Below are positions 44,619 to 53,947 of a stretch of DNA of 59,156 nt, one piece after another. Numbering within the stretch: position 1 is the first letter of the stretch; every line of letters begins with the position of its first letter. The notes below the pieces were generated by a model, which did not search any database, had not been told where the DNA came from, and saw only the letters and a program-made list of their open reading frames with translations. The DNA comes from Minisyncoccota bacterium (lineage in GTDB: Bacteria; Patescibacteriota; Minisyncoccia; Phycocordibacterales; UBA9973), in NCBI GenBank assembly GCA_041648595.1, contig JBAZOQ010000004.1:1-59156 (forward strand). Reading direction: 5' to 3'. The position numbers and the translations under genes are program-made.

Positions 44619-44691
44619 CCGCCCTTAGCTCAGTTGGTAGAGCAGACGACTTATACTCGTCGTGTCCTAGGTTCGAGTCCTAGAGGGCGGA
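44619..44691 (+). tRNA. tRNA-Ile, anticodon UAU
   Basis: Hand-folded cloverleaf: acceptor CCGCCCT/AGGGCGG, D arm GCTC-AGTTGGTA-GAGC, anticodon arm GACGA-CTTATAC-TCGTC, T arm CTAGG-TTCGAGT-CCTAG. No encoded CCA. Confidence 0.85.
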
Positions 44692-44737
44692 CAAGACGAA
44701 ACTTCAGCGAAAAAATCAATTGCGTTAAAATTAAAAT

Positions 44738-44780
44738 AATTACTGGAATATTTGTCTTAAGAATAGGGTATCTTGCAATG
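44738..44780 (+). repeat. 43-nt tRNA-proximal repeat, copy A
   Basis: About 36 of 44 positions match the reverse complement of 59047-59089; shared core ttgtcttaagaat. Confidence 0.6.
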
Positions 44781-44794
44781 GGTGGCGGGCGAGG
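44778..44794. repeat. GC box ATGGGTGGCGGGCGAGG (left boundary of the R-M island)
   Basis: Exact reverse complement at 53680-53696; near-copy at 53742-53757. Confidence 0.8.
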
Positions 44795-44870
44795 GAGACC
44801 TTTTTAGCATAACATAGTACTTAACACATGTTAAGTTGTTTTTTTATAAGGAGTATGCTATACTTATAGT

Positions 44871-46664
44871 ATGTCAATAGATAAATCAAAATTTGTAACT
44901 CCTACACAACTTGCCAAAATGTTAGGGATTACCCGTGTAGCAATACATCAAAAGATCAAAAAGGGCGAAATTGAGGTTCAAAATATTGGGGATTCTTCAA
45001 AACCAACATATTTAATACCTAAAGCTTCTTTATCTCAGGAAATACAGGATCGCATTCAAAATGAGCAGAAAAAGAATACTGAAAAGGTTCTTACAAAGAA
45101 CAATCATCACGATCTTGGTTTTGAGAAAGAGCTTTGGGCGGCGGCGGATAGACTGCGCGGAAATATAGATGTTTCGGAATATAAAAATATAGTTTTGGGA
45201 TTACTCTTTTTGAAATACATTTCTGACTCATTTTATAAACGCCGAGAAGTTCTTACAGAAATGACTCGTGACAAAAAGAATGAAGATTTTTATGTTCCGA
45301 CCGATGAAGCACGAAAAGCAATTCTTGAAACAAAAGATTTTTATACTTCCGAAGGTGTATTCTATGTTCCTGAAAAATCTCGTTGGCAATATTTGCAGAC
45401 AAAGACAATGAGTTCTGATTTGGGAAAAGTTTTAGATAACGCGATGGAATTGATTGAAAAAGATAATCCGGTGCAACTTGAAAATGTCCTTCCTCGTGTA
45501 TATACAAAAACAAATCTTGATCACACTGTTCTCGGCGAGTTGGTAAATATATTTTCACAAATTTCTTTTGACCACGATTTTGATCGCGAAAAAGATATTC
45601 TTGGTCGTATATATGAATACTTTTTGGGGCAATTTGCCTCAGCAGAAGGAAAACGTGGAGGCGAGTTTTTCACGCCACGCTCTATTGTTAAATTACTGGT
45701 AGAAATTCTTGAACCGTACGAAAACGCGCGCATTTTAGATCCTGCGGCAGGCAGTGGAGGAATGTTTGTGTCTATGGGCGAATATTTACGCGACCATAAA
45801 ATGGATCCGTCTAAACTTTCTATTAACGGGCAAGAAAGTAATCAAACAACCCTTCGCCTTTGTAAAATGAACCTTGCTATTCGAGGGCTTTCTGGAAAAA
45901 TAGAACTTGGTAATACATATTATCAAGATAAATTTCCAAATCTTCAAGCAGACTTTGTTATTGCAAATCCACCTTTTAATGCAGAATGGGAACCTCAAAA
46001 ACTTTCTGACAATGACCCACGCATTATTTTAGGTGTTCCGCCTTCCGGAAATGCAAACTTCTTATGGGTGCAACACTTTGTTCATCATCTATCATCAAAT
46101 GGGCAAGCAGGATTCGTTATGCCAAATGGAGCTCTTGCTGTATCTGGGAAGGAAGGAGAGCTTCGGCAGAAGCTCATCGACGCAGACCTTGTGGATGTGA
46201 TTATTTCATGTCCGTCAAAACTTTTCTATAATGTTTCACTCCCTGTTTCTCTATGGTTTTTGGCAAAAAATAAAGGTGGAGACCGTTTCCGCAACCGCAA
46301 AGGCGAAACTCTTTTTATTGATGCACGAGATACTTTTGAGCAAATATCTCGTAAGCAAGTTGTTTTTAATAAAGAAAATCTTGAAAAAATCGCGGGTGCT
46401 GTTCGTTCGTGGCGTGGAGAAAAAGGAGCGCCAAAATATGAAGATGTTTCTGGTTTTTGTAAATCAGCAAATTTAGAAGAAATAAAAAAGAACGGATACA
46501 CACTTACTCCCGGAAGATATGTCGGGCTTGCCGATGTTGAAGACGATGGAATTTCATTTGAGGACAAAATGCAAAAACTTTCCGGAGAACTCCGCGAAGC
46601 ATTTACAAAGGGTCGTGAATTAGAAAAAGAGATTGAGAAGAATCTCAAGGAACTGGGGTTTTAA
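44871..46664 (+). CDS. hsdM: type I restriction-modification methyltransferase subunit HsdM with an N-terminal excisionase-type HTH
   Basis: N6-adenine MTase motifs (DPAAGSGGMF, NPPF) and the HsdM N-terminal domain (LWAAADRLRG). The first 75 aa or so carry HTH LAKMLGITRVAIHQKIKKGEI. Confidence 0.92.
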   Translation: MSIDKSKFVTPTQLAKMLGITRVAIHQKIKKGEIEVQNIGDSSKPTYLIPKASLSQEIQDRIQNEQKKNTEKVLTKNNHHDLGFEKELWAAADRLRGNIDVSEYKNIVLGLLFLKYISDSFYKRREVLTEMTRDKKNEDFYVPTDEARKAILETKDFYTSEGVFYVPEKSRWQYLQTKTMSSDLGKVLDNAMELIEKDNPVQLENVLPRVYTKTNLDHTVLGELVNIFSQISFDHDFDREKDILGRIYEYFLGQFASAEGKRGGEFFTPRSIVKLLVEILEPYENARILDPAAGSGGMFVSMGEYLRDHKMDPSKLSINGQESNQTTLRLCKMNLAIRGLSGKIELGNTYYQDKFPNLQADFVIANPPFNAEWEPQKLSDNDPRIILGVPPSGNANFLWVQHFVHHLSSNGQAGFVMPNGALAVSGKEGELRQKLIDADLVDVIISCPSKLFYNVSLPVSLWFLAKNKGGDRFRNRKGETLFIDARDTFEQISRKQVVFNKENLEKIAGAVRSWRGEKGAPKYEDVSGFCKSANLEEIKKNGYTLTPGRYVGLADVEDDGISFEDKMQKLSGELREAFTKGRELEKEIEKNLKELGF

Positions 46665-46671
46665 TAGATAT

Positions 46672-47835
46672 ATGAAAAAAACAACAAAAAAAATTATTAA
46701 AAATAACAGCTTTACTGAGTTTTTACTTTACACGACCCCAAATGGAAAAGTTAAAGTGGAGATCTTTTTACACAATGAGACTGTATGGCTTACACAAAAG
46801 AAAATGGCCGAACTTTTTGATGTAGAATCCAACACAATCACTTATCACTTAAAAGAGATATATGAATCAAGAGAATTAAATAAAAATTCAACTACTCGAA
46901 AAATTAGAGCAGTTCAAAATGAAGGTGGCAGGAGTATAAATAGAGAGCTGGAGTTTTATAACCTTGATGTGATTATTTCTGTTGGGTATAGAATAAATTC
47001 AACCAAAGCAACACTTTTTCGTATGTGGGCAACCGAGAGATTGCAGGAATATATCATCAAAGGGTTTACTATGGATGATGAGAGGTTGAAAGACCCAAAT
47101 GGGTTTTTCGGACATGATTATTTCGAAGAACAGTTAGCGAGAATTAGAAATATTCGGTCAAGTGAAAGACGAATGTATCAAAAAGTGACTGATATTTATG
47201 CACAATGTAGCGCTGACTATAATCCGAACGAAGAAATTACTAAATTATTTTTTGCCACCGTGCAGAACAAATTACACTTTACCATTACGGGGCAAACTGC
47301 GGCAGAAATAATTTATGATAGGGTAGATAGTAAAAAACAAAATATCGGCTTAACTAGTTGGAAGAATTCACCAAAAGGAGCTATTAGAGAGACTGATGTC
47401 GTTATTGCTAAAAATTATCTTGATGAGCAAGAATTGGATTATCTAAATAGAATAGTCACTATGTATCTTGATTATGCTGAAATGCAAGCAAAGAAAGGAA
47501 TAATTATGTATATGAAAGATTGGGTCGTGAAACTGGATTCGTTTTTAAAATTTAATGAGGAAGAAATATTGCAAGATAATGGAAAAATCAGTCACGAAGT
47601 TGCTGAGGCGCTTGCACTTGGTGAATACGAAAAATATCGTGTTGAGCAGGATAAAAAATATATTTCTGATTTTGATGGTTATCTTGAAATCGAACAGAAA
47701 ACCAAAGATTTTCACCTCGCAATTGACGAGCACAAATCTAAAGAAAAACGCAGGAAACTTTTGAGTAAAAAGAAGTCAGTTGTCCGAAAAAATCGGACAA
47801 CTGGAACTAACATTGTTAAACGGAAAGAAAAATAA
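46672..47835 (+). CDS. RhuM-family protein
   Basis: VWLTQKKMAELFDV...NLDVIISVGYRINS..ATLFRMWATERL, the signature of the RhuM family. Confidence 0.8.
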   Translation: MKKTTKKIIKNNSFTEFLLYTTPNGKVKVEIFLHNETVWLTQKKMAELFDVESNTITYHLKEIYESRELNKNSTTRKIRAVQNEGGRSINRELEFYNLDVIISVGYRINSTKATLFRMWATERLQEYIIKGFTMDDERLKDPNGFFGHDYFEEQLARIRNIRSSERRMYQKVTDIYAQCSADYNPNEEITKLFFATVQNKLHFTITGQTAAEIIYDRVDSKKQNIGLTSWKNSPKGAIRETDVVIAKNYLDEQELDYLNRIVTMYLDYAEMQAKKGIIMYMKDWVVKLDSFLKFNEEEILQDNGKISHEVAEALALGEYEKYRVEQDKKYISDFDGYLEIEQKTKDFHLAIDEHKSKEKRRKLLSKKKSVVRKNRTTGTNIVKRKEK

Positions 47836-47844
47836 GTTATCCAC

Positions 47845-47874
47845 AACCATTTCGTTGATATCAACGAAATGGTT
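47845..47874. repeat. perfect 30-bp palindrome between rhuM and hsdS
   Basis: aaccatttcgttgat|atcaacgaaatggtt. Confidence 0.9.
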
Positions 47875-47884
47875 ACACAGAAAT

Positions 47885-49060
47885 ATGAGCAAATTACTGG
47901 AACAAATTAATAATACAAAAACAACCAAGAGATTGGGCGATTTGGTATTGATTAACCAATCTTCAATAACAAACGGTTTTTCTTATAGAGAAATTGAGTA
48001 TATTGATACCGCTTCAGTAACGCGAAATCATTTTGATAGGCCTCAAATTTTAAATATCAACGAAGCTCCAAGTAGAGCAAAAAGATTACTCAAGGATGGA
48101 GATACAATTCTCTCGACCGTGAGACCTAGTTTATGTCATTATGGGTTTATAAAAAATCCAAAACCTAATACCGTAGCATCTACTGGCTTTGCAGTTTTAA
48201 CTCCCAAAAATATTGATCCATTTTATCTGTATTCATATCTAACTCAAGATTCGATAACTACTACATTGAGTTCTATTGCAGAAGCAACCACAACAACTTT
48301 CCCAGCGTTTAGACCAGAAGTTCTTTCTGAAATGGAAATTGATGTTCCCGACCTCCCAACCCAAAAGAAAATCGCAGATATTTTAAGTGCTTATGATTCA
48401 AAAATTGAAAACAATAACAAGATAATCAAAAATCTTGAAGCAACAGCGCAAACTATTTTTAATGAATGGTTTGTAAATTTCCGCTTCCCTGGATATGAAA
48501 AAGTAAAAATGGTTGAGAGTGAAATGGGAGAAATTCCGGAAGGGTGGGAGATTTTTAATCTGAAAGATATTTTTACTTTCGTGAAAGGTAAAAAACCCGC
48601 AGAAGTTTCAGAAATTCAGAAAGAGGGTTTTCTTCAGCAAATTCTTATAGATAGTTTCGAAAACGGTAAAAAACTTTATGCAGATAAGAAAGGTATGGTA
48701 ATTGCCAGTGAGCAAGATTTACTTATGGTTATGGACGGAGCAAGTTCTGGACGAATTGAATTTGGCATAACTGGTATTGTTGGTTCTACTATATCGAAAC
48801 TTGAACTTAAAAAACCAATCAGATCAATATTATATTTTTTTCTAAAGACAAAAGAAAAAGATATCAAAGATAACACGACGGGTTCAGCAATTCCGCATAC
48901 CGATAAAGAAAAAGTATACTCTTATAAGATAGTTTTACCTAAAAAAACAGATTTTTTTGAAGAAATACTTTTGGGTTTTATTCAAGGCATAGAAAAACTT
49001 AATCAAGAAAATATAAAACTTAAAGAGTCGAGAAATCAATTATTAGATAAATTAATATGA
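47885..49060 (+). CDS. hsdS: type I restriction-modification specificity subunit HsdS
   Basis: Two target-recognition domains separated by the conserved helix (LPTQKKIADILSAYDSKIENN), with a C-terminal repeat of it. Confidence 0.88.
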   Translation: MSKLLEQINNTKTTKRLGDLVLINQSSITNGFSYREIEYIDTASVTRNHFDRPQILNINEAPSRAKRLLKDGDTILSTVRPSLCHYGFIKNPKPNTVASTGFAVLTPKNIDPFYLYSYLTQDSITTTLSSIAEATTTTFPAFRPEVLSEMEIDVPDLPTQKKIADILSAYDSKIENNNKIIKNLEATAQTIFNEWFVNFRFPGYEKVKMVESEMGEIPEGWEIFNLKDIFTFVKGKKPAEVSEIQKEGFLQQILIDSFENGKKLYADKKGMVIASEQDLLMVMDGASSGRIEFGITGIVGSTISKLELKKPIRSILYFFLKTKEKDIKDNTTGSAIPHTDKEKVYSYKIVLPKKTDFFEEILLGFIQGIEKLNQENIKLKESRNQLLDKLI

Positions 49061-49794
49061 ACCAGAATACTGAACAAAAATTAAATGAAAAAACACTTTA
49101 TCTTTTTATAGATGAATCTGGAAATTTCGATTTTTCACCTAAGGGGACAAAAGCTTTTGTTCTTAGTGGTCTTGTGACATTTGATCCTCTGCCGTTTAGA
49201 GAGGAGCTCATACGATTACGATACGATATTTTGAGTCAGGGTATTGATCTTGAGTACTTTCATGCTACAGAAGATAGGCAGGTAGACCGCGACATGGTTT
49301 TTGCAGTGATTGAAAGACTAAAAGATACTTGTGAAGTTCATAGTGTCGCGGCAAGAAAGAATAGGGTGAATCCTGTTTTATATTGTGATAGTGTTGACCA
49401 TAATGGAAAAGTGGTACGCGGAATGAAAGGTTTCGGTCTATATGAATTTTTATGTAAGAATCTCCTCACATACGTATTCAATGGAAAAAAAGGAAGAGTA
49501 AATAAGATTATAGTCGTACTGAGTGCACTTTATACCGGGGAAAAGAAAAAGATAATTATGCATTCAATCAAAAAACATATTAAAGAGAATTTTCCTGATG
49601 TACGCTTCGAAATATTTATGCACGCTTCGGCAGCTGATTTAAATTGTCAGATAGCTGATTATTGCTGTTGGGCGGTATTTGTAAAAATTGAGAGAGATGA
49701 AAAGCGTCCTCTTGCGATTATTAGGAATATGGTTAAAAGTTATTTTGATATCTTTAAAAACGGAGATGTTGAATATTACCAATATGGAAAATAG
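49057..49794 (+). CDS. DUF3800-family protein embedded in the R-M operon
   Basis: LYLFIDESGNFDF N-terminus. Its start overlaps the hsdS stop (ATGA). Confidence 0.7.
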   Translation: MNQNTEQKLNEKTLYLFIDESGNFDFSPKGTKAFVLSGLVTFDPLPFREELIRLRYDILSQGIDLEYFHATEDRQVDRDMVFAVIERLKDTCEVHSVAARKNRVNPVLYCDSVDHNGKVVRGMKGFGLYEFLCKNLLTYVFNGKKGRVNKIIVVLSALYTGEKKKIIMHSIKKHIKENFPDVRFEIFMHASAADLNCQIADYCCWAVFVKIERDEKRPLAIIRNMVKSYFDIFKNGDVEYYQYGK

Positions 49795-49810
49795 ACATAT
49801 ACAAAAACGA

Positions 49811-49862
49811 CCAAACCCCCTATCCTTTCGGAAGAGCCCAGGGGCTCTTGTCGGGGGTCTGG
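49811..49862 (+). other. 52-nt GC-rich multi-stem structure between DUF3800 and hsdR
   Basis: Outer stem ccaaaccccc/gggggtctgg encloses tcc-tttc-gga and aagagcc-cagg-ggctctt. Confidence 0.55.
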
Positions 49863-49942
49863 AACCTTTACATAAGTATAACCCAAGCTGTTAGGTAAAA
49901 GCAAATAAATGTGGATAAGTCAAAAAATATAGCAAAAACAAT

Positions 49943-52900
49943 ATGAACCCCATCAACGAAAACAATTTAACAGAACAATCACTCATCGACTGGCTTAAGG
50001 GCGAGGGATATGAGCATATTTATGGACCGGACATAAATCCCGGACAGACTCGCGCAGAGCGCGAGGATTTTCGGGGGGTTGTTTTGAAAGACAGACTTCT
50101 TGGAGCTGTTCGAAGAATAAACCCGTCGCTTCCAGCCGAGCAAGCAGAGATTATTGTTAAAGAAATTGCGGATTATTCTCACAATGATCTTATTCTTGGA
50201 AACAAAGAAGTGTATTCTTGGGTTACGACTGGCAAAAAGATTTCGTGGAGAGAAAATGGCGATGAAAAAACAGAGCTGGTAAAACTTATAGATTTTACTG
50301 AATCACTATTAAATGAATTTCTTGTAGTGAATCAATTTACAGTACAAGGTATTGATGCTGTGTGCCGTCTAGACGCTGTTATTTTTGTGAACGGTTTACC
50401 GCTTGGGGTTTTTGAATTAAAGAGTGGCGTTCGCACAGAAGCGACAATCGGTGAAGCATACCGAGATGTTGAGTATTACAAAAAGGAAATTCCGAAGCTA
50501 TTTTTATACAACCAAGTTGTTGGATTGTCTGATTTGTTTAATGCGCGACACGGCACTATTTCCTCATCGTGGGAACGCTATGGAACATGGAAAGGTATCA
50601 CAGTCGAAAATGATTTTTCAAAAGAGGCAGAAGAATTGGAAGTATTGGCTAAAGGGCTTTTTAATAAAGAACGCTTCTTGGATGTGCTACAACACTTTAC
50701 AATTTTTGAAGCCGATAGTGATGGTGAGGCGGTTACCTATACAAAAAAGATGTGTATGTATCATCAGTATTATGGAGTGAATAAAACAATTACCAGCACT
50801 ATCCGCGCAATTCTAGGAGAGCAAGATAGAAAAATCGGAGTATTTTGGCACACACAAGGTTCGGGTAAATCTCTGTCGATGGTTTTCTATGTGAATAAAA
50901 CAAAAAATATTCCAGAATTGAAAAGTCCTGCGTATGTATTCCTGACAGACCGTGAAGATTTGGATGACCAGTTATTTAAAACCTTCAGTCGTACCGGATA
51001 TGGGACGCTTGCCAAAAAAGCATCTAGTATAAAAAATTTGCGCGCTAGATTGTCGCATTTGGGTAGTGAGCTTATTTTCACTACTATTCAGAAATTCCAA
51101 GAAGACCCTGACGCTCAAAATGCTTTAACCGAGCGAGATAATATTATTGTTCTTGCGGATGAAGCGCATCGTACGCAATACAGTAATTTAGCTGGTAATG
51201 TTCGCCTTGCATTACCTAATGCTAGTTTTTTGGGAGTAACCGGAACACCTATATCAAAAAATGACAAAGATACAGTCAGGGTTTTTGGTAATGTCGTTAG
51301 CTCCTACAAAATTAGCCAATCAGTAAAAGATAAATCAACTGTACCAATTTATTACGAAGGACGACTTGTACCACTTCATCTAGCTGATAAGTTCATTGAT
51401 ACTAAATTTGATGCTGTGTTAGGCGAAGTTATTTCTGATGATAACGCTCGAATGCGAAAAGAATGGGCTGTGCTTGAAGAAGTAGTCGGAGCACCGAGTC
51501 GTATAGAAAAAATTGCAGAAGATATTGTACACCACTTTAATAATAGACCAATTGAAGGCAAAGCAATGATTGTGACTATGAGTCGTCGGATTGCGGTTTT
51601 GATGTATGAAGCAATTCAAAAAATTAATGGCGCGCCAGAATGTGCGGTGGTCATTTCTAATAGTGATGAATACGCATCTCTCATACAGCAAGAGCGAGAT
51701 GTAAAGAAACTGGAAAAAAGATTTAAAAAAGTAAATGATTCTTTAAAAATCGCCATTGTGTGTGATATGTGGCTGACTGGTTTTGATGTGCCGTGCCTAC
51801 ATACGATGTATCTTGATAAACCACTTAAAAATCACGGGCTCATGCAAGCAATTGCTCGTGTCAACAGAGTATATAAAGATAAACCAGGAGGTTTGATTGT
51901 TGATTATATCGGTATTGCTGAAAACTTAAAAAAAGCACTCGCTTGGTATGATTCTGATATTCAGAATGATGCACTTATTCCTATTGATGAAGTTGTTGTA
52001 CTAATGCACACTATGCACAAACAGGTTGGCGAGTTTTTCGGCAAAGTCGATTATGCTTCTTGGAAACAAAAGAAAGGAGTTGAGTTAGTTAGAATCATGC
52101 AGGCAGGAATAAATGAAGTGATAACTAATAACGGATATTTATCTGATGAGCGAAAAATGAAATATATGGGAATGGTTTCAAAACTTTCGAAACTACATGC
52201 CCTTGTTATGCCGGGCGAGGAAGCTATGAAAATTGTGAATGATTTACAATTCTTTCAATCAATTCGCGAAGCGATCCGGAAGCAGACAGTATTACCGCAT
52301 GCGATTTTTCCGGAAGAAACAGAAAGTGCTATTCGCAGTTTAATGCAAGATTCAATTCAAGCTGAAGGAATTGTTGATTTGTTTAATGTTCCCGGTCAAG
52401 AAAGGAAAAGTATTTCAATTTTCGATGAAAAGTTCGTAGCTGAAATAAAAAAATCACAGTATCACAATTTTGCTGTTGATTCAGTTCGAAAACTTCTTGA
52501 TCAAGAAATTCGCGCTCGTATGCGTGTTAATACTGCTCGCTACGAAACAATGCTCACGCTATTGGAAGGACTTATTGAAAAATATGAAAACAACGTAATC
52601 AGCTCTACTGAAATTATAAAACAACTTCTTGAAATTGCAGATGAAATTAAAAAACTAGATCAAGAAAGTAAAGACACGGGACTTTCTGAAGAAGAAATTG
52701 TATTTTATGATACTCTTGAAAAAAATCCTGATCTAAAAAATGCAGGAATTGATATAAAAGAATTTGTGAAAGAGCTAACGAAGCGTATTAGGCGCGATTT
52801 AGCGATTGACTGGACTAATAACGAAACAATAAAAGCGCGTATTCGCCAGAATGTTAGACTTCTTTTGCTTCAGAAAGGAATTGTTGAGGAAATGCAAACC

Positions 52901-52966
52901 AAAAGATTGATTGAATCTATCTATCTTGAAACTGTGCGAGTTTACAGAGAATATTTGCCAGCATAA
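49943..52966 (+). CDS. hsdR: type I restriction endonuclease subunit HsdR
   Basis: SF2 motifs (TQGSGKS, LADEAHRTQ, TGTP, QAIARVNR); about 1000 aa. Confidence 0.93.
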   Translation: MNPINENNLTEQSLIDWLKGEGYEHIYGPDINPGQTRAEREDFRGVVLKDRLLGAVRRINPSLPAEQAEIIVKEIADYSHNDLILGNKEVYSWVTTGKKISWRENGDEKTELVKLIDFTESLLNEFLVVNQFTVQGIDAVCRLDAVIFVNGLPLGVFELKSGVRTEATIGEAYRDVEYYKKEIPKLFLYNQVVGLSDLFNARHGTISSSWERYGTWKGITVENDFSKEAEELEVLAKGLFNKERFLDVLQHFTIFEADSDGEAVTYTKKMCMYHQYYGVNKTITSTIRAILGEQDRKIGVFWHTQGSGKSLSMVFYVNKTKNIPELKSPAYVFLTDREDLDDQLFKTFSRTGYGTLAKKASSIKNLRARLSHLGSELIFTTIQKFQEDPDAQNALTERDNIIVLADEAHRTQYSNLAGNVRLALPNASFLGVTGTPISKNDKDTVRVFGNVVSSYKISQSVKDKSTVPIYYEGRLVPLHLADKFIDTKFDAVLGEVISDDNARMRKEWAVLEEVVGAPSRIEKIAEDIVHHFNNRPIEGKAMIVTMSRRIAVLMYEAIQKINGAPECAVVISNSDEYASLIQQERDVKKLEKRFKKVNDSLKIAIVCDMWLTGFDVPCLHTMYLDKPLKNHGLMQAIARVNRVYKDKPGGLIVDYIGIAENLKKALAWYDSDIQNDALIPIDEVVVLMHTMHKQVGEFFGKVDYASWKQKKGVELVRIMQAGINEVITNNGYLSDERKMKYMGMVSKLSKLHALVMPGEEAMKIVNDLQFFQSIREAIRKQTVLPHAIFPEETESAIRSLMQDSIQAEGIVDLFNVPGQERKSISIFDEKFVAEIKKSQYHNFAVDSVRKLLDQEIRARMRVNTARYETMLTLLEGLIEKYENNVISSTEIIKQLLEIADEIKKLDQESKDTGLSEEEIVFYDTLEKNPDLKNAGIDIKEFVKELTKRIRRDLAIDWTNNETIKARIRQNVRLLLLQKGIVEEMQTKRLIESIYLETVRVYREYLPA

Positions 52967-52970
52967 ATTT

Positions 52971-53639
52971 ATGGACGACGAAAATACAACCAAAAACCAA
53001 GATTCTGAGCAAAACTCTATTCCACCAAGCCCCCAAGAGCCCATAGCTGATGCATCTATTCCACCCATGGATTCCGCACCTGCCGAAGTGCCTTCTGAGG
53101 CCCCGGAAGCTTCTAGGGAGGGTTTAAGTGATGAAAGTACTAATATACCACCCTCTAATTCTACCCCTATACCAGAAGAAGCAATCCCATTAGAGCCAAC
53201 GGATATGCAAGCAAATCCTGCCTCTAACGGGACAAGTGAACCCTCAATTGAGCCAGTTTCTGAACCCGTAGAATCTCCTGAACTCGAAACGGCTCAAATA
53301 CCAGTAAATGAGCCGTTGAAAGAACCGGAAACTTCTCAAAACGAACAGGCGAAGCCTGTGAGTGAACAACCTAAATCTAATCTAGCTCGCGAACTTTTAA
53401 TCACAGCTCGAAACGCAATACAATTTCGAAAGCGAAAGAAACTAGATAAAGTTATGTCTTTGTTTGATAAAAAGAAAAATGGTTCGACAAGCTCACCACA
53501 AGTCACAAACGACGAAGTGGAAAAGTTTCTTCACGTCTCGGATGCAACAGCAACCCGATATCTTTCACAACTAGAGAAAGAAGGAAAAATAAAACAAAGT
53601 GGTAAAACTGGGAAAGCGGTTTTCTATTCTAGGATTTAA
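52971..53639 (+). CDS. highly acidic Pro/Glu/Ser-rich protein with a C-terminal winged-HTH
   Basis: About 150 aa of low-complexity acidic sequence, then VTNDEVEKFLHVSDATATRYLSQLEKEGKIKQSGKTGKAVFY. ATG 52971 is 4 nt after the hsdR stop. Confidence 0.6.
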   Translation: MDDENTTKNQDSEQNSIPPSPQEPIADASIPPMDSAPAEVPSEAPEASREGLSDESTNIPPSNSTPIPEEAIPLEPTDMQANPASNGTSEPSIEPVSEPVESPELETAQIPVNEPLKEPETSQNEQAKPVSEQPKSNLARELLITARNAIQFRKRKKLDKVMSLFDKKKNGSTSSPQVTNDEVEKFLHVSDATATRYLSQLEKEGKIKQSGKTGKAVFYSRI

Positions 53640-53679
53640 TTTTGCAGGGAGCCGCCGTTTCTTCTTTGAAGAAACCTGA

Positions 53680-53696
53680 CCTCGCCCGCCACCCAT
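53680..53696. repeat. GC box (inverted copy, right boundary of the R-M island)
   Basis: cctcgcccgccacccat is the reverse complement of 44778-44794. Confidence 0.8.
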
Positions 53697-53947
53697 ACCA
53701 AATCAAAAAAAACCCCCGCGAAATAATATATGCATGGAAACGGTGGCGAGGCGAGGGCAGACTCCGACCTTGGTCGGAGTGGCGGAGTTCATTGAGTTAC
53801 CACATTAATAGAGCGTAGTAATTGCTTTCGAGAAATGATGCACGCGGAGCGTGCGCATTAGTGGTTCTCGAAAAAGGTTCGTGCAAAGGTTAAGATAAGA
53901 GGACAAGAAAATTTAAGTAAATCTAAAAATTATATTATAATAACTAA

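Follow-up and report, generated by a model that had tools for sequence, protein, structure and literature searches.

The window analysed here is the whole 59,156-nt stretch (positions 1 to 59,156 of the forward strand) of contig JBAZOQ010000004.1, assigned to a Minisyncoccota bacterium (assembly GCA_041648595.1). It carries a tRNA-Ile gene with the anticodon UAU (44619..44691; predicted by ARAGORN and, with 67.5 bits, by Rfam), which is intact and forms the attachment site of an island of six genes encoding a type I restriction-modification (R-M) system. This island, and the short GC-rich boxes near its ends, are the subject of the present analysis; all features lie on the forward strand unless stated otherwise. 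The first gene, hsdM (44871..46664), encodes a type I methyltransferase with a weak N-terminal helix-turn-helix (HTH) match, HTH_17 (Pfam N6_Mtase, 5.8e-102; HsdM_N, 3.3e-25; PADLOC MTase_I, 4e-154), and is preceded by a promoter and 5′ region (44798..44870) conserved in two relatives, L098 and L119. It is followed by a rhuM-family gene (46678..47835), recognized by Pfam and placed by PADLOC in the candidate defence family PDC-S05, and by hsdS (47885..49060), with two target-recognition domains (two Methylase_S stretches; PADLOC Specificity_I over the full length). The remaining genes are a DUF3800 gene (49057..49794; Pfam 3.5e-12; PADLOC DUF3800_VII), hsdR, an intact open reading frame (ORF) at 49943..52966 (Pfam HSDR_N, SWI2_SNF2 and T1RH-like_C; PADLOC REase_I, 3e-243, residues 4-989 of 1007), and a gene for an acidic winged-helix protein (52971..53639). 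By its gene content the array is predicted to be a complete type I R-M system in which the RhuM and DUF3800 genes are embedded.

The same order of genes (HTH-hsdM, rhuM, hsdS, DUF3800, hsdR and acidic winged-helix protein) had been proposed in an earlier note made from the sequence alone, and both Pfam and PADLOC upheld it. The note had also described the array as richer in G+C than its surroundings, and a check of composition and codon usage bore this out. The G+C content is 36.7% for 44693-53908 and 31.8% for the rest of the window; equal-sized windows elsewhere reach at most 34.0% (mean 31.6, standard deviation 1.1), so the island lies above all of them. At third codon positions, island genes have 22-30% G+C, compared with 15-21% for flanking genes. 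The statement that the window lacks an integrase or transposase was likewise confirmed, since neither the Pfam scan nor a tblastn search with the family recombinase described below found one.

The boxes were found where they had been reported. The 17-mer ATGGGTGGCGGGCGAGG occupies 44778-44794 (box 1), its exact reverse complement 53680-53696 (box 2), and a third box, GGTGGCGAGGCGAGGG, with one extra A, 53742-53757 (box 3). When flanks are included, the inverted match grows to 22 nt with 91% identity (44773-44794 and 53680-53701). No further match to the 17-mer was present in the whole window with up to three mismatches allowed, and two matches were reached in none of 100 dinucleotide-preserving shuffles.

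The interval between tRNA-Ile and the PIF1 helicase gene was compared in 68 loci fetched around PIF1 homologues (L numbers denote fetched loci of relatives, and X numbers public sequencing runs). In the four closest relatives with an intact site (L002, L004, L007 and L008; PIF1 82-85% identical), the order is FtsH, tRNA-Ile(UAU), about 40 nt, and PIF1, and the array is absent from the interval. The block 44692-53908 is therefore an insertion, and represents a horizontally acquired island beside tRNA-Ile. The window sequence just 5′ of PIF1 (AAGAAAATTTAAG...) corresponds to the native trailer that follows the tRNA in the empty sites (CAAATTTTAGAAA...), as does the sequence AAATTTAAG... downstream of the right end, while the sequence directly after the tRNA gene (CAAGACGAAACTTCAGCG...) is unlike that trailer. 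Both island junctions were reproduced by unitigs from two public metagenomes; these are Logan unitigs, which are unable to span the 230-nt repeat.

A different arrangement was observed at the same site in L051 (5644-6615). About 150 nt after tRNA-Ile(UAU) there is a duplicated tRNA 3′ end (GTCCCTCCGCGC-ACAA), and between it and PIF1 lie 900 nt of non-coding DNA rich in repeats. The arrangement resembles the remnant of another type of insertion at the same tRNA gene, and would make tRNA-Ile(UAU) a hotspot.

The real ends of the island are the 3′ end of tRNA-Ile (44691/44692) and the 3′ end (~53904-53908) of a structured element of about 230 nt, designated B. The 8-mer GGACAAGA occurs only twice in the window, at these two ends: the left core (44689..44696) contains the attL crossover region GGAC/AA (slashes in sequences mark junctions), and the right core (53901..53908), at attR, is followed by native tRNA-trailer-like sequence. 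Four junctions can be compared, namely attB of L002 (GGCGGAC/AAATTTTAG), attP of L133 and X27 (GAGGAC/AAGACGAAAC), and attL (GGCGGAC/AAGACGAAAC) and attR (GAGGAC/AAGAAAATTT) of the window. They are compatible with a single crossover, attL and attR giving attB and attP. The right junction of the window reads B...GAGGAC/AAGAAAATTTAAG and then continues into the native trailer. In L133, element B is joined to another module, C, in the form ...AAGATAAGAGGAC/AAGACGAAACTTCAGCGAAAAAATC, and the same junction occurs in a 300-nt X27 contig. The decisive relative is L087, which reads ...GGTTCGAGTCCTAGAGGGCGGA/CAAGACGAAACTTCAGCGAAAAAATC/GGTCGCGCGC... and goes on with C, a recombinase gene, a second C, and B. 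The 48 nt of this locus that cross from the tRNA 3′ end into C are the same as those at window positions 44670-44717, after which the window passes into unrelated AT-rich filler. On this comparison, L087 preserves the intact state at the corresponding tRNA-Ile(UAU). A long direct repeat of the tRNA 3′ end, in the style of tyrosine integrases, was considered for the right end and rejected: only GGACAAGA is shared, and the GGTTCG likeness is part of B everywhere.

Element B in its right-hand, outward-facing copy (53678..53904) was delimited by its fold and by an alignment of 31 copies. The 300 nt that follow the last gene of the island have fold z-scores of -5.6 and -6.1 relative to shuffles, and in the predicted fold box 2 pairs with box 3. 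These two boxes, 45 nt apart, form a single hairpin of B, P1 (5′ arm 53680-53696, 3′ arm 53742-53757); a further helix, P2, lies at 53762-53779. Scanning metagenome contigs with a 19-mer of B yielded 52 loci, and 31 full copies were aligned. P1 is kept in all 31, with at least four compensated variants of the inner stem (GCCAC with GTGGC, ATCGC with GCGAT, GCCGT with ACGGC, and CTCTC with GAGAG), and P2 shows double compensatory changes in nine of nine pairs. Overall, 97.8% of the cells are paired, as against 87.9 ± 0.7% in shuffled alignments (0/500) and 31-54% when partners were slid, and the covariation score is 0.32 versus 0.17 after shuffling (0/500). B is a conserved, base-paired structured element. 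Two long-range helices vary solely by G-U wobble on the B-sense strand (114 G-U versus 9 A-C; 100% and 97% of cells paired), which hints at an RNA of that sense. We infer that B acts as RNA, forming the leader of the recombinase mRNA as well as an arm of attP. Searches of the window, L070 and L077 against Rfam 15 (4227 families), at the gathering scores and at E<=10, left B, C and a third module, A, unmatched.

Across the loci a common plan recurs: a lone reverse B, 4-9 kb of cargo, the winged-helix gene, A, and a forward B, with both B copies facing outward. Outward of many B copies lies the ~135-nt module C, followed by an ORF starting MIKPKYFLYARKSSEDD... that encodes a large serine recombinase (LSR). 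The protein has Resolvase, Recombinase and Zn_ribbon_recom domains (Pfam; L127:6451-7995), an N-terminal YxRxS(S/T) motif, and a PHROG integrase match of 2.7e-79; the LSR gene adjoins B-C in at least 15 loci. At its 3′ end a second, inverted C is joined directly to the 3′ end of a gene for a stable RNA, which is transfer-messenger RNA (tmRNA) in L127 and L129, tRNA-Ile(GAU) in L091, a tRNA-Ile in L137, and tRNA-Ile(UAU) in L087. The 3′ end of B differs according to the target (...CTCCA/CA at tmRNA, ...TCAC/C at tRNA-Ile). In L133, an intact C and LSR gene follow the B 3′ end. Over 6.1 kb, ending at the last base of B, the cassettes of L137 and L138 are 100% identical; past this point one continues with C-LSR-C-tRNA and the other with an unrelated host flank, and the flanks therefore switch exactly at the B 3′ end.

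The cargo is always defence-like, and comprises type I, II, IIG and ISP R-M systems, Shedu, OLD/AAA_15 ATPases, HEPN proteins, KAP NTPase and LexA-S24-methylase fusions. The locus L136 (1-11542) has a single recombinase module (B-C, LSR, C-B) with a defence cassette diverging on each side, and may represent either a nested island or one with two arms. A phage origin of the family was considered and rejected, as searches of IMG/VR viral contigs with a B 21-mer, a profile of the winged-helix protein and the LSR revealed no relatives. No description of these islands was found in the searchable literature, and a serine-integrase island family with structured modules is apparently undescribed.

Set against this plan, the left end of the window island can be read as a series of remnants. 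Positions 44692..44717 are the first 26 nt of C (CAAGACGAAACTTCAGCGAAAAAATC), the sole remnant of C-LSR-C; the same 26 nt follow tRNA-Ile(UAU) in L087 and the B 3′ end in L133. They also begin a 150-nt spacer in L003, which looks like a further-reduced scar. Next comes 55 nt of AT-rich filler at the deletion scar (44718..44772). It matches unitigs of the freshwater metagenome X3, in which it continues into a promoter-like sequence (CATGGTATAAT...GCCCGAGACAATG) that is the one preceding B in L070, and the left end thus looks like a mosaic of fragments derived from the element. The segment 44773..44797 (reverse strand), which contains box 1, is the inner-end vestige (P1 5′ arm) of a left inverted B, as seen by alignment with L098, L119 and L084; it also shares 19 identical nucleotides in a row with the inner end of the reverse B in L132-L135. 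L098 and L119 carry a full reverse B about 75 nt upstream of hsdM genes 94% and 89% identical to that of the window, and the window can be aligned with both from 44773 rightward, from the B inner end through the hsdM promoter. Box 1 is thus the last ~20 nt of the lost left B, which accounts both for its exact inverted match to box 2 and for its likeness to box 3 in the direct orientation. An nhmmer search with B over 10 kb around PIF1 in the 68 relatives gave almost no matches, because these relatives have no island there.

We consider it likely (probability of about 0.8) that the island belongs to a family of integrative defence islands found in Paceibacteria-type bacteria of the candidate phyla radiation (CPR), and that it has decayed and become immobile. 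An intact member would have, in order, the tRNA or tmRNA 3′ end, C, the LSR gene on the opposite strand, inverted C, inverted B, 4-9 kb of variable defence cargo, the winged-helix gene, A, B, and the native flank. Judging from this anatomy, the LSR would catalyse integration by recombining attP (the junction of the B 3′ end and C) with attB (the tRNA 3′ end), with the crossover in the window lineage at GGAC/AA. About 2 kb would then have been deleted, comprising C past its 26 nt, the LSR gene, the second C, and the left B except for its innermost ~20 nt; element A would have been deleted too, leaving an island no longer self-mobile. The missing integrase is explained in this way because intact relatives, including the one at the same site, have the LSR between the tRNA and the left B, where the window lost ~2 kb. 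The earlier note had suggested a mobile or recombination-delimited island at a tRNA. Its acquired, site-specifically integrated descent stands, but the boxes neither bracket the island nor serve as its recombination sites; they were mistaken for terminal inverted boxes, box 2 and box 3 being one hairpin and box 1 the remnant of a second B.

The conserved protein of the family is the winged-helix protein, 222 aa in the window, with an acidic, Pro/Glu-rich and low-complexity N-terminal part and a C-terminal winged-helix domain of about 85 aa. Its 1780 homologue clusters all come from CPR metagenomes, and homologues carry HTH_24. The only sequence match in PDB is marginal (MarR-type AdcR, E=0.5), and the comparison with PHROG gave 'transcriptional regulator' (E=0.0017). 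In every context examined, its gene is the last of a variable defence-like operon, before A or B, and in the contexts with element A this always comes after it.

Element A, GC-rich and about 450 nt long, matches its own reverse complement and consists for the most part of a single long imperfect hairpin. The element was located at L070:10840-11270, L071:10618-11067 and L077:10637-11103. In the window, the segment 53640..53677 contains only the A-loss junction (GGGAG/CCGCCGT) and a leader hairpin preceding B, where L070, L071 and L077 have ~450-640 nt of A; the window's A was lost at a short CGCCGT repeat. A promoter-like sequence (TTGGACAC...TATGAT or TGGTATAAT) is located between A and B. In some elements B is replaced on the A side by another structured module, D, with a B-like 3′ end (…AAAATAGGTTCTGATTTGGTAGTATAAACGCA/); D was identified at L139:6290-6570, L136:11100-11350, L071:11070-11300 and L131:1-450 (reverse complement). 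An IS110 bridge RNA was also considered, as a transposase gene (DEDD_Tnp_IS110 and Transposase_20; L004:14951-16024) lies beside A in one locus. This proximity is incidental and absent from other loci. The transposase adjoins element A of another island of L004, beyond RecG.

Several observations weigh against the interpretation of the island as a decayed relative of LSR islands with an RNA-forming B. The attB/attP identity is merely 4-8 nt, which on its own is weak evidence, even if an identity of a few nucleotides is normal for LSRs. The filler has no match in the fetched loci. L084 has a full reverse B just 10 nt from the tRNA, its recombinase also lost, and its junction (8160-8170; tRNA-Ile/CAATCGTGAA/outer end of the full reverse B) joins 10 nt of C to a B of opposite orientation, which a simple deletion would not obviously produce. 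In L102, L118 and L136, B and C are contiguous on both sides of the LSR, and these may be either free forms or nested insertions. No excised circle or attP x attB product was observed directly, nor was a restored attB seen within one population. As regards the RNA, the alifold energy is similar on both strands (-21.1 sense, -26.5 antisense), and the B-like contigs found in four metatranscriptomes have low depth and no strand direction.

The sense of B bears on another explanation, namely that B, and likewise A and C, are structured DNA sites, working as recombinase-binding arms or as folded single strands comparable to integron attC. Compensated hairpins would be equally expected from a DNA cruciform or a single-stranded fold, the crossover point is the B 3′ end itself, and alifold favours neither strand. 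However, the G-U-only variation would mean mismatches on the other strand or in duplex DNA, B-like sequence does occur in the metatranscriptomes, B-C occupies exactly the position expected for the 5′ leader of the LSR mRNA, and B, at 230 bp, is large beside LSR att sites, which normally measure about 50 bp. We regard a DNA site as possible, with the balance leaning towards RNA. Somewhat less probable is that the inverted B copies are working recombination substrates, so that cargo could be inverted, or exchanged between islands, through the LSR or by homologous recombination; the boxes would then define the inner border of an invertible or exchangeable cassette, and the window would be a frozen relic. 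Both orders exist, with the LSR beside the lone B (L105, L127, L137) and beside the winged-helix gene, A and B (L091), and the same cassette occurs in differing contexts (L128 and L131, 98.5% identical; L137 and L138, as above). B copies are also more alike within loci (similarity 0.99, 0.85 and 0.86) than between them (mean 0.77), many B matches lie at contig ends, and the promoter-like sequence is placed just inside the A-side B. On the other hand, no single sample was shown to have both orientations, contig breaks are expected at any repeat, and the A-side B of L131 and L139 is replaced by D, so the pairs are not simple B x B inversions; for the same reason L128 and L131, which have been tried as a clean inversion pair, are not proof, L131 having module D (B*) after A. 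Exchange between B copies would in any case add to the integration model and not replace it.

The proposal that the boxes are terminal inverted repeats, recognized by a recombinase or transposase and delimiting the island, has in its favour that boxes 1 and 2 are exact inverted copies near the ends of the array and that intact relatives do have inverted repeats around their cargo. Yet the boxes lie ~85 nt and ~210 nt inside the real junctions, box 2 is paired locally with box 3, and the flanks switch at the B 3′ end and not at P1. Moreover, the box sequence varies across relatives while pairing is retained, which is the signature of a helix rather than of a protein-recognized terminus. There is no transposase, and the 8-nt core represents a block of att-type identity rather than the target-sequence duplication of a transposon. 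Taken together, this makes terminal repeats very improbable. Short GC-rich boxes in an AT-rich genome might also be a chance repeat, or a common dispersed one resembling repetitive extragenic palindromes (REP) or miniature inverted-repeat transposable elements (MITE), with no relation to the island. The outcome of the shuffles and the lack of any further copy in 59 kb speak against this, and at least 60 B copies in relatives each adjoin the winged-helix gene and A, C and the LSR gene, or a cargo edge; the chance of such a repeat is negligible. A decayed LSR island thus remains our preferred reading. A far-reaching combination of the above ideas is doubtful: in it, B, C and A would be working RNAs, a B-C leader mimicking the tRNA 3′ end would control or target the integrase, and inverted B copies would make the cargo invertible or exchangeable, giving an RNA-assisted platform widespread in CPR bacteria.

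Among known systems, the family is closest in its recombinase to LSR islands and prophages (phiC31/Bxb1-type elements, SCCmec Ccr, TnpX/TndX, and streptococcal integrative and mobilizable elements), which have the same Resolvase, Recombinase and Zn ribbon domains. They are also alike in the recombinase gene at one end, the few bases shared by attB and attP, and the lack of long direct repeats. In contrast to them, the new family targets the extreme 3′ end of tRNA and tmRNA genes, its recombinase gene lies between inverted B-C modules of ~365 nt, and its cargo lies between inverted 230-nt structured elements, with the winged-helix gene and the 450-nt A always present; its elements are also absent from IMG/VR viral contigs. 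Targeting of tRNA and tmRNA 3′ ends is the classical habit of tyrosine integrases. Islands of that kind (P4-like and pathogenicity islands) resemble the new family in inserting at the 3′ end with restoration of the gene, in an end that mimics the tRNA 3′ end, in atypical composition, and in the frequency of decayed copies without integrase; they differ in recombinase class and in their direct repeat of the tRNA 3′ end, which is 15-50 nt long compared with a core of 4-8 nt here.

A conserved frame holding variable defence cargo is also found in defence-cassette platforms such as P2/P4 satellite hotspots, pipolins, Tn7-like elements and integron cassettes. Here, however, the frame consists of the non-coding modules A, B, C and D and a small winged-helix protein, and genes for an integron integrase, PolB or Tns are absent. 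Integrons in particular are not matched, as no tyrosine recombinase was found and an island has only two B copies, however many genes it contains. Invertase switches (Hin, Gin, Cin) and shufflons resemble the intact relatives in having inverted repeats around a segment beside a serine recombinase gene, but the repeats of the new family are structured and 230 nt long, unlike 26-bp hix-type sites, and the recombinase is of the large integrase type. Finally, the modules share with the ornate non-coding RNA candidates ROOL, GOLLD and the DUF3800 motifs (Weinberg et al. 2017, PMC5737381) a GC-rich, multi-helix, covarying and intergenic character and a mobile or defence context, whereas A, B and C match no Rfam 15 family.

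The window copy itself is of an ordinary kind, a degraded integrative island carrying R-M. Through its relatives, an island without an integrase becomes an explained relic, and the positions of its ends are corrected. The boxes led to a conserved kit consisting of the LSR, the non-Rfam modules A, B and C (and D), and a winged-helix protein with ~1,800 clusters, which frames diverse defence systems in Paceibacteria-type CPR bacteria and inserts at tRNA and tmRNA 3′ ends. If the predicted attP/attB pairs work, they would be candidates for the first integration tools in uncultivated lineages that have almost no genetic tools. The structured elements are new candidate functional RNAs tied to recombination or defence.

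Other features of the window concern RNA motifs and neighbouring tRNA genes. A sub-threshold match to the DUF3800-IX RNA motif (49806..49863, reverse strand; Rfam 29.3 bits versus a gathering score of 36.8, E=0.007) is located between the DUF3800 gene and hsdR. RNA motifs tied to DUF3800 genes in either orientation, for a reason left unexplained, have been described (PMC5737381), and the position of the match fits this association. A second such pair occurs elsewhere in the window, where a DUF3800-II RNA above the Rfam gathering score (7945-8006, reverse strand) directly follows a short ORF (7474-7911) whose weak DUF3800 match is limited to the C-terminal part of that domain.

Downstream of the island, an ORF of the LAGLIDADG type (57793-58905) lies between divergent tRNA-Ser genes (57732-57819, reverse strand, and 58917-59006, forward strand); L002, L007 and L008 have only ~70-100 nt in its place. 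One of the two tRNA-Ser genes was assigned the anticodon ACU, which is unusual, and its counterparts in relatives receive the same assignment. A similar LAGLIDADG-like ORF is present just upstream of tRNA-Ile in L084 and L087.

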